From positions 1,689,279-1,753,278 of the forward strand of contig OY762937.1 of NCBI GenBank assembly GCA_963667005.1: DNA of 64,000 bases. The letters run 5' to 3'. A program made the position numbers and the translations under genes. A model generated the notes under the pieces. That model saw nothing but the letters and a program-made list of their open reading frames with translations, ran no database searches and was not told where the DNA came from. The stretch's first letter is position 1. Each line of letters opens with the position of its first letter. This document shows positions 59,209 through 64,000 of the stretch, one piece after another. The stretch comes from Ignavibacteriaceae bacterium. Lineage in GTDB: Bacteria; Bacteroidota; Ignavibacteria; Ignavibacteriales; Ignavibacteriaceae.

Positions 59209-62200
59209 ATGAAGAATAGATACAAAAACAAACATGCCTTGAAGTATAAGCTCCTCTCGGCAGCACTACTACTGTTTCTTGTGTTTACGGCATTTCGCCC
59301 GAATACTGGAGTAACGATATATTTAATTGGTGATTCTACAATGTGCGATTATGATACTACAAATAATAATCCACAACGCGGTTGGGGGCAGATGCTTAAG
59401 CAGTTCTTTAATTCAAATGCGACCGTGGTCAACTGGGCAGCAGGCGGCAGGAGCTCAAAATCATATTATAACGAGGCCGGTAAATGGGATTATGTTTTAA
59501 GCCATATCCAGGCAGGCGATTATCTATTTATTCAGTTTGCCCATAATGATGAAAAGGATCCGGTTTTATATCCTGACTATCATACCGATCCCGGGTCAAC
59601 CTATGATCAGTATCTTACAGCCTATGTCAATGAGGCAAGAGCCAAAGGTGCTATTCCGATTATCGTGACTCCAATCTGTCGTTTTTACTATGGCGGTGAC
59701 GGATTAATTACTGCATCAGGTCAGCATAATGTTTCTCCATATGGAGACTATCCAGCGGCTGCGCGCAATGTCGCAACAAATTTAAGTGTGCCATTGATTG
59801 ATTTAACTGTTAGTACTAAATCATTATATGAAGCCTACGGGCCAACAAACGGAGCACTTTTACATTTAACAACTGATAATACACATCCAAACGTACTTGG
59901 TGCAACGCTTATTGCACAACTGGCAGTGCAGGAGATGAAAAGTAAAAGTATTCTGACGGATTATCTGAATTCTTCTACCAATATCATTCTCAGTCCGACT
60001 TCATTGTCATTCGGTGATTTGACAATCAACCTTACAACCAGTGCTTCATCATTTTCTGTTTCCGGCTTTAGCTTAAGCCCATCAAGTGGAAATGTTGTTC
60101 TGACAGCTCCATCTAACTTTGAAGTTTCTACATCATCATCAAGTGGTTTCGGTAGCACTGTCAGCCTTGCGTACACAAACGGAACACTCTCGACCACAAC
60201 CGTGTTTGCACGGTTTAAGCCGACGGCTGTAAAAGTATACAACGATTCTATTACAGCAACGATTAATTCAACATTCCTTCAAAGTTTGAAGGTGTATGGA
60301 CAAGGAACTCCTGTTCCTACCGGGCTTACTTCAGCATCTGCAACCTGGTCGTTATTGAGCAACCAAACCGCCACTTCAGTCTCCGGCAGTCTTTCAGCTA
60401 CGAATCAAACACTTGGACCTTTATTAGCGGGTATTGCATACAACACTACATTTGGCACGGTGGCCGGCTGGCAGCGAGTTGCAACCACCTCATATCTGCC
60501 GACAACTTACAATTATAGGTCTTATGTTGACTATCAAATAACACCGCAGCCCGGTTATTATTTTATTCTTAATTCTGTTACTCTTAATGCACTGGGAGGA
60601 GGTTCGGGTAATGGCAAAATGGCTGCATATTATTCGACAACCGGATTCGCCGATTCTGCTGCATTAGGCACTGCAACGTATTATGCATCAACCTCACCAA
60701 GCAGTTATGCTGCGACCACGGCTACTCCTATATCAATGCTTAATTCGGGGTCTGCCTCGGCATCAGTACAGGGAAGTACTTCCTTTTCGCCCAATATAAC
60801 GGTAAAAGGTGGAACGACACTTACCGTGAGATTATATGCATGGTGTACATCTGCCAGTAAGTACTTAGCGAACCGCAATGTTACTCTTTCCGGAAACTCT
60901 GCTACGGCATCCCATCCGGCTCCACCAACAACATGTACGGTTACCGGAATATTGGCAACTTCTGCTACTTCGGGAGGTTCGGCAATTACCTCGGATAGCA
61001 ACAGCGTGATAATAGCAAAAGGTGTGTGTTGGAATCTTACCGGCAGTCCGACAATTGGTGACTCAAAGACCAATGATGGTACAGGAATGGGTGCCTACAC
61101 AAGTACTTTAACAGGCTTGAGTATGGGACTGACCTATTACGTCAGAGCCTACACGACCAACGCGGCAGGAACCTCTTATGGTAATGAGGTAAGTTTTACG
61201 ACATCATCATCAGCTACCGAACCATTGGTATCGACCGGCTCAGTGTCCAATATTGCACCTGACTCGGTAAGTGTAAGCGGTTCTATTAATAGCGATGGAG
61301 GAACCCCGTTACTGTATTCCGGTTTTTGCTGGAGCACGACAAACACAACGCCTACAATAAGTGATTCAAAAAATGATGTCGGCGTAAATACGGGTCCGAT
61401 TTCAAGCACGTTAAAAGGCCTTACTCCTAGTACAACATATTACATTCGTGCGTATGCTACTAATAACTCGAATTTAACGGGTTACGGTACTGTTGTTACA
61501 TTCACCACCGCGGGAGATTATTATAATGTATCCGGGGCAGATGTAACATCAGCCGGTAATTGGGGTATGAATACTGACGGAAGCGGCACGCATCCGGATT
61601 TTACAAAAGATAATCAAAGGTACCACCTGACAAATGCGACATCCGGCTATACACAGAATTGGACAGTTTCTGCCAACTCGAAAGTAATTTTGGGTAATGG
61701 TAGCGATTCAATTAGTTTCACCATTCCCGCAGCCTACTATTTGTCCGGCAGGATTGATTTGACAGCTAAAACTTTACTCATAGTCCAGAACTCGTCAAAT
61801 CTTGTTTTTGGTACAATTGATCCGGCGAGTACGGTTAATTATGACGGCAGCAATGCCTTGACAATTCTCGCAGGCAGCTATGGCAGCCTTGCAAGCACCA
61901 ATGATAGTGCTGCAACTCGTTCACTTGCAACAGGTACGATTTCCGTTAAGAAGACCTTTGCCAAAGGGCGGGCAGCATATACAACTCCATCCGCTGGAAC
62001 ATTTATCTTCAACGGCACCTCGGCTCAGGTTATACCTGGCATTTCATATTATAACTTACAATTAAATAATGCGTCAGGCGCAACGGTAAATGATTCATTG
62101 ATACTCGTCTCAGGTGGTACGCTTACGTTAACATCGGGACAATTGACTGTATACGGTGTTATTGATAATAAATCTTCGAACCCTCCTGTTACTACCGGTG

Positions 62201-64000: not shown

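Follow-up and report, generated by a model that had tools for sequence, protein, structure and literature searches.

A modular CE12-CE8 protein, probably a T9SS-secreted pectin esterase, encoded beside a LytS/LytTR system in an Ignavibacteria-type bacterium

The window, a stretch of 64,000 nucleotides of contig OY762937.1 from an Ignavibacteriaceae bacterium, ends within a long open reading frame. Translation from the ATG at 59209 on the forward strand gives 1597 codons without a stop through position 64000, the end of the window, as the original prediction had stated. The frame was missing from the ORF track that accompanied that prediction because the ORF listing omits frames that run off the end of their source. 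A Shine-Dalgarno-like motif (GGAGA, 59199-59203) stands 5 nt ahead of the ATG. Immediately upstream and on the same strand lie two kinase genes and a regulator gene (56087-59005), which make up, as had been claimed, the sole two-component system among the window's ORFs of at least 150 aa. The features of the locus are as follows:

56087-57193, + strand: LytS-type histidine kinase 1 (Pfam His_kinase and HATPase_c)
57190-58215, + strand: LytS-type histidine kinase 2 (Pfam His_kinase, without HATPase_c)
58208-59005, + strand: LytTR response regulator (Pfam Response_reg and LytTR; NCBIfam BtsR/LytR-like)
59058-59075, + strand: tandem 8-mer TCTAAACG-CA-TCTAACCG, within the 203 bp that separate the regulator and esterase genes
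59209-59298, + strand: start codon and Sec-type signal peptide (read from the translation; start conserved in the orthologue L001)
59314-59928, + strand: SGNH/GDSL hydrolase domain, CE12 type (Pfam, PDB matches, catalytic blocks)
59971-60336, + strand: Ig-like module copy A, an ASH/PapD-type β-sandwich (identity to copy B; AF2)
60337-60924, + strand: β-sandwich "N-domain", no Pfam family (profile matches, collinearity, AF2)
60925-61518, + strand: two tandem FnIII-like repeats, R1 (aa 573-668) and R2 (aa 669-770) (mutual identity, Foldseek)
61519-62913, + strand: predicted β-solenoid, G/T/S/N-rich, about 460 aa (AF2 and DSSP strand pattern)
62914-63333, + strand: unannotated β-sandwich (consensus columns, AF2, profile search)
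63334-63708, + strand: Ig-like module copy B, directly before CE8 (AF2; Foldseek ASH-type matches)
63715-64000, + strand: opening ~95 residues of a CE8 pectin methylesterase domain truncated at nt 64000 (Pfam Pectinesterase)

Comparison with related genomes confirmed that the ORF is a real gene. A syntenic gene from another Ignavibacteriaceae genome (L001) encodes a protein of 2022 aa that begins at the equivalent Met and aligns to the window ORF with 84% identity and zero gaps. All modules are under purifying selection, with pN between 0.027 and 0.11 against a saturated pS of 0.70-0.82, and the most constrained segment is the N-terminus of CE8 (pN 0.027). Six collinear orthologues were found, of 1901 to 2307 aa, and the window probably carries the first ~79% of a gene of ~2,020 codons (about 6 kb). 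Extension of the contig did not recover the gene's own 3' end: the last 48 nt of the window had zero exact matches in metagenome contigs, and a search for the continuation in genome contigs returned an 85%-identical relative alone. The orthologues do, however, complete the CE8 domain and add a T9SS tail.

The protein starts with a signal peptide that, as read by eye from the translation, comprises a basic n-region (MKNRYKNKHALKYK) and a hydrophobic h-region of 15 residues (LLSAALLLFLVFTAF). About 1,000 aa of the ORF belong to no Pfam family, and the sequence is biased in composition to T, S, G and N. A Pfam scan of the whole protein lost both GDSL matches of the N-terminus, which were recovered when that region was scanned alone (aa 37-237; Lipase_GDSL_2, 54.3 bits, cut-off 32.9; Lipase_GDSL, 51.0 bits, cut-off 23.6), showing that whole-protein Pfam scans of such biased sequence are unreliable. 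The only PDB sequences matched by phmmer were those of YxiM (2o14, 4e-27) and of rhamnogalacturonan acetylesterases (RGAE; 1deo, 5e-13, and 3c1u), all of them CE12 members and none from another SGNH family. The catalytic set is complete in the alignment, where Ser43 (of the GDS motif), Gly79/80, Asn113, Asp223 and His226 correspond to RGAE Ser9, Gly42, Asn74, Asp192 and His195; the blocks of YxiM likewise align with the SGNH catalytic residues. Bacillus subtilis YxiM and Aspergillus aculeatus RGAE belong to the same SGNH fold family, with blocks I, II, III and V conserved, but sequence similarity is low and both are single-enzyme proteins, unlike the one studied here. The N-terminal SGNH/CE12 assignment is borne out by these data. 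Of the more specific label, "rhamnogalacturonan" acetylesterase, the CE12 type holds, but the RG specificity is a family label only: RGAE acts on RG-I and YxiM is uncharacterised, and the best named match is the NCBIfam pectin acetylesterase PaeY, partial and far below threshold (65 bits, cut-off 1000). CE12 includes rhamnogalacturonan, pectin and xylan acetylesterases (PMC10483417), and judging from its sequence the domain could possibly act on homogalacturonan, RG-I or other acetylated glycans.

Between the CE12 and CE8 domains lies an insert of about 1,250 residues. It is bounded by the two Ig-like copies (aa 255-350 and aa 1379-1476), which are 43% identical to each other (E 1e-27). Distant relatives of copy A are annotated as Cep192_D4 or PapD-like, and Foldseek matched copy B to ASH-type domains (3qbt, TMt 0.58; 7ptb). 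The same module occurs twice in each of the neighbouring pectin genes at 20213, 23519, 26606 and 29962, in agreement with what had been proposed, and the junction of copy B with CE8 recurs in the gene at 29962. Copy A is followed by the N-domain, whose presence as a distant copy was also upheld: a profile of aa 377-572 matches the N-termini of genes 29962, 26606 and 20213 (2e-16 to 7e-13) and, weakly, gene 23519. The N-domain also follows the CE12 and Ig block, collinearly, in the CE12-CE8 proteins of Prevotella type (P0017-P0088). Pfam and PDB sequence searches with it gave no match, and it is a candidate carbohydrate-binding module. The tandem repeats that come next are real, but the unit is about 96-100 aa and FnIII-like, not ~80 aa as first described. 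R1 and R2 are 43% identical (E 2e-22), show weak matches to Pfam fn3 and Pur_ac_phosph_N, match the NCBIfam BT0360 N-terminal region (6e-22), and resemble titin-like FnIII tandems in Foldseek.

The following region had been described as ~600 aa of beta-helix-like sequence. According to the AF2 model, about 460 aa of it form solenoid-like strands, but the last ~130 aa are predicted to form a β-sandwich instead. The model of this solenoid/β-sandwich part has a pLDDT of 90.1 and a pTM of 0.76, and DSSP assigns to the solenoid three short strands per turn of ~23-27 residues; its predicted fold class comes from AF2 secondary structure only. Neither Pfam, NCBIfam nor PDB sequence searches matched the solenoid (profile searches of PDB sequences returned none for the N-domain either), and Foldseek found no solved structure like it. 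The solenoid is constrained as well (pN 0.11, pS 0.71 against L001). A degenerate β-helix of the pectate-lyase or GH28 kind was considered for this region and rejected, the families Beta_helix, Pel9A and Pectate_lyase being unmatched even at E = 1. The β-sandwich at 62914-63333, marked by the motifs FPIGD...EYxPV...KHPxN...RYW, is the best-conserved portion of the middle module among distant homologues. Its profile retrieved 20,243 representative proteins, and no Pfam family covers the matching regions. A second AF2 model, covering Ig copy A and the N-domain, reached a pLDDT of 88.0. Searched with Foldseek, the two multi-domain models returned generic Ig, FnIII and pilin-like matches, at query TM scores of 0.1-0.2.

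The Pfam family Pectinesterase (PF01095) matches from aa 1503 (nt 63715) with 42.9-48.5 bits (cut-off 27), a match that spans profile positions 1-83 of 298 only. The proposed pectinesterase domain is therefore present on the C-terminal side, and the profile search suggested for both enzymes places Lipase_GDSL_2 and Pectinesterase above their cut-offs. This part carries the GxYxE signature (PGFYHEKV), matches carrot pectin methylesterase (PME; 1gq8, 7e-11) and gives a sub-threshold NCBIfam match to PemA; the N-terminal cap and GxYxE are shared with the carrot, Dickeya (PemA; 1qjv, 2ntb) and Yersinia (3uw0) PMEs. The remainder of the domain, with the gene's own catalytic residues, lies beyond nt 64000, and its motifs were read in orthologues only. 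L001 has a full CE8 domain (176.5 bits over positions 1-293, 6.8e-52), whose QDT, DFIFG and LGRPW align to carrot PME, and orthologue CE8 shares with the PMEs of these three organisms the full right-handed β-helix and the QD, DFIFG and RPW motifs. The catalytic Asp-Asp, Arg and Trp (HQDTYY, VDFIFG or VDYIFG, LGRPW) are present in L001 and P0001-P0005. The differences from known CE8 enzymes are that the domain is set here in a modular protein of 2,000 aa and that, in these closest orthologues, the first oxyanion-hole Gln (carrot Q113) is replaced by Arg (ERAVA); P0006 and P0010 retain the Gln. Judged from the sequence, such a change could alter or weaken methylesterase activity.

A T9SS tail had been expected at the C-terminus, and a sorting domain was found in every full-length orthologue examined; the window gene's own C-terminus lies beyond nt 64000, and its tail is predicted from those orthologues. 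L001 matches TIGR04183 with 30.6 bits (cut-off 23) and PF18962 with 27.0 bits (cut-off 27), the sorting domain of P0002 scores 29.2 bits, and Por_Secre_tail occurs in P0001, P0002, P0005 and P0006. Por_Secre_tail also scores above cut-off in at least 12 other proteins of the window, which argues that the host uses a T9SS.

The combination of the two enzymes in one polypeptide had been called unusual, a view that our searches contradict. CE12 and CE8 occur together in 47 of the 137 protein clusters retrieved, in the same order in 44, with spacers of 16 to 1253 aa (median 939 aa), and the same N-terminal block is encoded in at least 444 metagenome stretches. Such fusions are already common in related bacteria and the biological surprise is small. 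A two-domain CE12-CE8 esterase has in fact been described from PUL 49 of Bacteroides xylanisolvens, a locus linked to growth on citrus pectin (PMC4769552); this description is genomic and transcriptomic only, and we found no biochemically characterised fused CE12-CE8 enzyme in the literature. Compared with that published description, the B. xylanisolvens protein has the same N-to-C order as ours, and its gene stands among pectin genes (PL1, GH105, CE8) and adjoins a sensor-regulator. It is, however, described as a two-domain enzyme and nothing more, and the PUL that encodes it is of the SusC/D type and has a hybrid two-component sensor, whereas the window protein has the ~1,250-aa insert of β-modules and, in orthologues, a T9SS tail, and its locus has a LytS/LytTR system and no SusC/D genes nearby. 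The uncharacterised Prevotella/Bacteroidales proteins P0017-P0088, abundant in gut and rumen metagenomes, are closer in size (1,460-1,810 aa; SGNH, Big_5, Flg_new_2, Pectinesterase). They share the collinear N-terminal block of ~570 aa (SGNH, Ig-like and β-sandwich) at 27-33% identity, with CE8 750-1,120 aa downstream of it, but their spacer consists of Big_5 and Flg_new_2 instead of the FnIII pair, solenoid and β-sandwich, and no Por_Secre_tail is recorded. Among the multi-modular T9SS-secreted CAZymes of the Bacteroidota, the cellulases of "Ca. Paraporphyromonas polyenzymogenes" (PMC5831590) are likewise reported to be large multi-domain enzymes with a C-terminal T9SS sorting domain instead of SusC/D-linked lipoproteins; they are glycoside hydrolases acting on cellulose, with other catalytic families and from a different phylum. 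Of the earlier interpretation, then, the single CE12/CE8 polypeptide, the shared modules and, in the orthologues, the T9SS tail stand, and the rarity does not.

Within the window, the esterase gene is ~17 kb away from a pectin cluster (18.5-42 kb), with housekeeping genes between them. In addition to PL1 and a GH88 gene, the cluster contains a CE8-like gene and six genes whose domains are Pel9A-like (PL9-type). The Ig and N-domain modules are common to the esterase and these pectin genes. The motifs of the CE8-like gene, at 29962, are clearly divergent.

The kinase-kinase-regulator-esterase unit was found in four of six orthologue contexts (the window, L001, L008/L009 and L010/L011), persists at protein identities as low as 54%, and is kept in loci whose outer flanks differ. 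In the remaining two, L002 (P0002) and the P0005 contig, no two-component system lies beside the esterase orthologue. The adjacent LytS/LytS/LytTR system probably controls transcription of the esterase. The upstream tandem 8-mer may, speculatively, be a candidate binding site for the regulator. It is the single exact match in the window, and L001 has the version TCTATCCG-CA-TCTAAACG; at more distant loci the repeat is not clearly shared. Its use to mark a regulon was rejected: 3 matches against 1.27 expected, equalled in 16 of 100 shuffles, do not amount to significant enrichment of the pattern, and none is evident upstream of the lyase cluster.

We propose that the product of this gene is a bifunctional pectin esterase, modular in build and secreted through the T9SS of an Ignavibacteria-type bacterium, a reading that we consider likely on the strength of the sequence comparisons. 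The N-terminal Sec signal would export the protein, and the C-terminal type-A T9SS sorting domain seen in orthologues would carry it across the outer membrane. Once outside, the CE12-type SGNH domain would use its Ser-His-Asp triad to take O-acetyl groups off galacturonan, and the CE8 domain, by means of two Asp plus Arg and Trp, would take off methyl esters. Jointly they would turn esterified homogalacturonan into pectate, on which the T9SS-tailed PL1 and PL9 lyases of the 18.5-42 kb cluster act; the breakdown products of pectate would feed the GH88-type hydrolase of that cluster. The insert, which would run in the order ASH-type Ig, β-sandwich shared with the lyases, two FnIII-like repeats, ~460-aa β-solenoid, β-sandwich and second Ig, is most likely a semi-rigid spacer and probably binds substrate as well. 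Cell-retained T9SS cargo is tethered by its C-terminus, so the insert would separate the enzymes: if the mature protein stays attached in this way, CE8 would be proximal, near the surface, and CE12 distal, roughly 30 nm off. The original picture of both enzymes on a long stalk is thus right about the long insert, but the insert would part the two rather than carry them together.

Several other readings were weighed against this one. That the long frame joins two or more genes through a fault of assembly or sequencing, or is a decaying pseudogene open by chance, might be entertained for an ORF of biased composition whose end is hidden by the window edge and in which ~1,000 aa match no Pfam family; however, the gap-free 84% alignment to the 2022-aa ORF of an independent genome and a pN far under pS in each segment effectively refute an assembly chimera or pseudogene, with five more collinear orthologues in independent assemblies and confident AF2 models for the unannotated parts pointing the same way, and we give this reading almost no credence. 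A more serious contender, which we nevertheless find rather unlikely, is that CE12 acts on a substrate other than that of CE8 (acetylated RG-I or a non-pectic glycan), the two activities being parallel and not sequential. The range of acetylesterases within CE12 (PMC10483417) allows for it, RGAE and YxiM, the latter uncharacterised, are the nearest relatives of solved structure, and an equivalog-level NCBIfam match is absent. Set against these points are the covalent joining of the CE12 domain to a homogalacturonan-specific family in the 47 clusters, the dominance of PL1 and PL9 pectate lyases in the local cluster, the failure to detect an RG lyase (PL4 or PL11) within the window, and the PaeY match as the best named one in NCBIfam.

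The protein could also serve chiefly to bind pectin at the cell surface, as an adhesin or spacer in which one esterase domain, most plausibly CE8, is catalytically impaired and binds instead. The Arg at the first oxyanion position in the closest orthologues would fit such a role, as would the clearly divergent motifs of the paralogous CE8-like gene at 29962 and the fact that the bulk of the protein consists of Ig, FnIII and solenoid modules also found in giant surface proteins. Yet both catalytic Asp, the second Gln, the Arg and the Trp are kept in L001 and P0001-P0005, the N-terminus of CE8 is the most constrained segment (pN 0.027), and the SGNH catalytic set is complete, and this makes impaired catalysis very unlikely in our judgement. 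We therefore retain the bifunctional secreted esterase as the preferred reading.

A bolder extension of the bifunctional esterase reading, in our estimate improbable, is that the four-gene unit forms a self-contained pectin "scout" circuit and that its β-sandwich (aa 377-572) and solenoid/β-sandwich (aa 771-1375) represent new families of pectin-binding modules. The surface-tethered esterase would de-esterify pectin, the de-esterified oligogalacturonides, acetate or methanol released might be sensed by the paired kinases, and sensing would in turn boost the expression of the esterase gene, perhaps along with that of the lyase cluster. The circuit would be found in a phylum without SusC/D-HTCS loci.

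The analysis fills an annotation gap left by a gene of about 6 kb that escaped listing by running past the window edge. The pectin equipment of this Ignavibacteria-type organism would consist of T9SS-exported, highly modular enzymes and not of SusC/D loci, and de-esterification, a prerequisite to attack by pectate lyases, would be housed in one giant protein. The kinase/kinase/LytTR/esterase unit may offer a testable handle on the very common and poorly understood LytTR class. The β-sandwich N-domain accompanies pectin-active catalytic domains in two phyla, which marks it as a candidate for a new carbohydrate-binding module. More than 20,000 representative proteins share the solenoid/β-sandwich module, which no Pfam family covers.

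The frame that opens at ATG 59209 on the + strand can be translated through 1597 codons with zero stops until the window ends at 64000, as originally predicted, and the sequence GGAGA is found 5' of the ATG at 59199-59203. We confirmed that this gene, which we call the giant esterase, is missing from the ORF track that accompanied the original prediction, because the ORF lister skips any frame that extends past the end of its source sequence. A genome scan found a syntenic locus (L001) in an Ignavibacteriaceae MAG chromosome (OY759785.1) with the same gene order, in which RNase R, encoded on the other strand, is followed by two kinases, a LytTR regulator and an ORF of 2022 aa, to which the giant esterase is 84% identical across all 1597 residues, gap-free. 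Nei-Gojobori comparison of the two genes in eight segments gave a saturated pS of 0.70-0.82 and a pN of just 0.03-0.11 in all eight, unannotated ones included. Five more collinear orthologues (1901-2307 aa, 54-69% identity) come from independent assemblies. Judging from these alignments, the gene is real and constrained over its entire length.

Profile searches upheld both enzymatic assignments. The N-terminal 264 aa match Lipase_GDSL_2 and Lipase_GDSL above the Pfam cut-offs when scanned alone, a match that the whole-protein Pfam scan missed. The solved relatives of this region by sequence are CE12 enzymes only (YxiM, 2o14; rhamnogalacturonan acetylesterase, RGAE, 1deo/3c1u), and Ser43, Gly79/80, Asn113, Asp223 and His226 align onto the catalytic residues of RGAE. 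From aa 1503 (nt 63715) the protein matches carrot pectin methylesterase (PME, 1gq8) and, above cut-off, Pfam Pectinesterase, over the first 83 of the 298 profile positions, the rest lying past the window end. The CE8 domain of the L001 orthologue is complete (6.8e-52), and its HQDT, VDFIFG and LGRPW motifs align with Q135/D136, D157 and R225/W227 of carrot PME. The first oxyanion-hole Gln (carrot Q113) is replaced by Arg ('ERAVA') in the closest orthologues, namely L001 (11177-12250) and the cluster representatives P0001-P0005, while the more distant P0006 and P0010 retain Gln; by alignment, this is a clade-specific substitution in the CE8 active site.

A type IX secretion (T9SS) tail had been expected at the C-terminus. 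At its C-terminus the L001 protein has a type-A T9SS sorting domain (TIGR04183, 30.6 bits vs a cut-off of 23) and Por_Secre_tail is also present in the remaining orthologues, so the expectation is borne out in the relatives. The C-terminus of the window copy lies past the window end, and its tail is predicted from the relatives, an exact 48-nt string from the window end having zero matches in the metagenome collection.

The domains, the modules and the tail of the original prediction thus stand, the last in relatives, but its view that a CE12-CE8 fusion is unusual does not. PUL 49 of Bacteroides xylanisolvens is reported to encode an esterase with just these two domains (PMC4769552). Both domains occur in 47 of the 137 retrieved clusters, in the order SGNH then CE8 in 44 of these 47, with a spacer of 16-1253 aa (median 939 aa). 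Several such clusters comprise 80-240 sequences, most of them of gut or rumen origin, and the same N-terminal block is encoded by at least 444 metagenome stretches. The giant esterase belongs to an already known kind of fusion. Its clade differs from the others in the longest spacer seen, built of an FnIII pair, a solenoid and a β-sandwich, and in its T9SS tail. A literature search aimed at fused CE12-CE8 enzymes found no biochemical characterisation of any of them.

Between the two enzymes, Ig-like copies at aa 255-350 and aa 1379-1476 share 43% identity, and the same module is present twice in each of four large genes at 20213-33057. By its Foldseek matches, and by its distant relatives, which carry the Pfam labels Cep192_D4, PapD-like and CFAP65-Ig, the module falls in the ASH/PapD-type Ig class. 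The first Ig-like copy is followed by a region with matches in neighbouring genes:

60337-60924 (aa 377-572), + strand: unannotated β-sandwich of ~190 aa ('N-domain'), with no Pfam family

Its profile matches the N-termini (aa ~25-200) of genes 20213, 26606 and 29962 at 7e-13 to 2e-16, two of which carry Pel9A-like (PL9-type) lyase domains and the third a CE8-like domain, and it is collinear after the CE12+Ig block in dozens of Prevotella-type CE12-CE8 proteins. Since it accompanies pectin-active catalytic domains, we consider it a candidate new carbohydrate- or pectin-binding module. Two FnIII-like units with 43% mutual identity (aa 573-770) come next. The AlphaFold2 model of aa 771-1375 is confident (pLDDT 90.1, pTM 0.76) and predicts ~460 residues of short strands, three per turn, typical of a β-solenoid, and then a β-sandwich of ~130 aa with conserved FPIGD, KHP and RYW motifs; Pfam, NCBIfam, PDB sequence profiles and Foldseek gave no assignment for either part. 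A profile of aa 771-1500 (61519-63708), whose counts pool matches to the Ig-like module with those to the solenoid and β-sandwich, retrieved 20,243 representative proteins among 1.84 billion at E ≤ 1e-3, of which 4,555 reach E ≤ 1e-30. Giants of 2,000-7,600 aa with 8-34 matched stretches are frequent among them, and the solenoid/β-sandwich part has no Pfam family in the matched proteins. Such modules are widely used to build large surface proteins.

Directly 5' of the esterase lies the only two-component system of the window, as had been claimed, no other being detected in ORFs of 150 aa or more:

56087-59005, + strand: two LytS-type kinases and a BtsR/LytR-like LytTR regulator

The kinase-kinase-regulator-esterase unit recurs in L001, in loci L008/L009 (P0001) and in L010/L011 (P0006, just 54% identical), with outer flanks that differ genome by genome; it is absent beside the P0002 and P0005 orthologues. 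In the P0001 genome, a phage-type integrase and ArdC-like genes are found within a few kb on the 5' side of the unit (L008, 1-4600) and a PL9-like lyase directly 3' of the esterase, showing that the surroundings of the unit vary. This distribution of the unit suggests regulatory coupling, short of proof. The second kinase (57190-58215, + strand) has His_kinase (PF06580) and no detectable HATPase_c, as in the L008, L009, L010 and L011 cassettes; the tandem kinases possibly act as a heteromer; alternatively, one of them may have degenerated. Just 3' of the regulator stop codon (59020-59050) are a short hairpin, GGGTCGCAACAACCC, and a perfect palindrome, GGAAAATTTTCC, followed at 59058-59075 by a tandem 8-mer, TCTAAACG-CA-TCTAACCG, which is kept in L001 and whose pattern shows no statistical enrichment within the window. 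They may act as terminator and operator elements.

Housekeeping genes occupy 42-56 kb, and a pectin cluster lies at 18.5-42 kb (18512-42051), with a PL1 lyase, six Pel9A-like genes, a CE8-like protein and a GH88 hydrolase. Almost all of these enzymes have a T9SS sorting domain, and no SusC/SusD-type genes were found among the cluster ORFs scanned. Among the T9SS-tailed proteins of the window are:

7413-10658, + strand: 1081 aa, without recognised catalytic domain
29962-33057, + strand: the CE8-like protein, 1031 aa, with an Ig-like-to-CE8 junction as in the giant esterase (33% identity)
36883-38529, + strand: 548 aa, without recognised catalytic domain, inside the cluster
40510-42051, + strand: 513 aa, without recognised catalytic domain beyond a weak sub-threshold GH99 match, inside the cluster

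The CE8-like protein covers Pectinesterase profile positions 2-170 of 298 and has divergent motifs ('NWSDTF' for 'HQDTYY', 'GGIDAVCP' for 'GSVDFIFG'); it may be inactive or of different specificity. The GH88-type unsaturated glucuronyl/galacturonyl hydrolase of the cluster is T9SS-tailed; in other systems such enzymes are usually periplasmic or cytoplasmic.

A self-contained LytS/LytTR-esterase circuit for sensing pectin, with new binding modules, seems to us quite improbable. We infer the activities, substrates, anchoring and regulation of the giant esterase as follows. The protein would be exported by Sec and then by T9SS, whose cell-retained cargo is tethered via the C-terminus. If so tethered, CE8 would be cell-proximal and CE12 distal, the two separated by a chain of β-modules, ~30 nm long as estimated from typical module sizes. 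CE12 would strip O-acetyl groups and CE8 methyl esters from homogalacturonan, and the pectate so formed would be the substrate of the secreted PL1 and PL9 lyases, whose unsaturated products would pass to the GH88-type enzyme.
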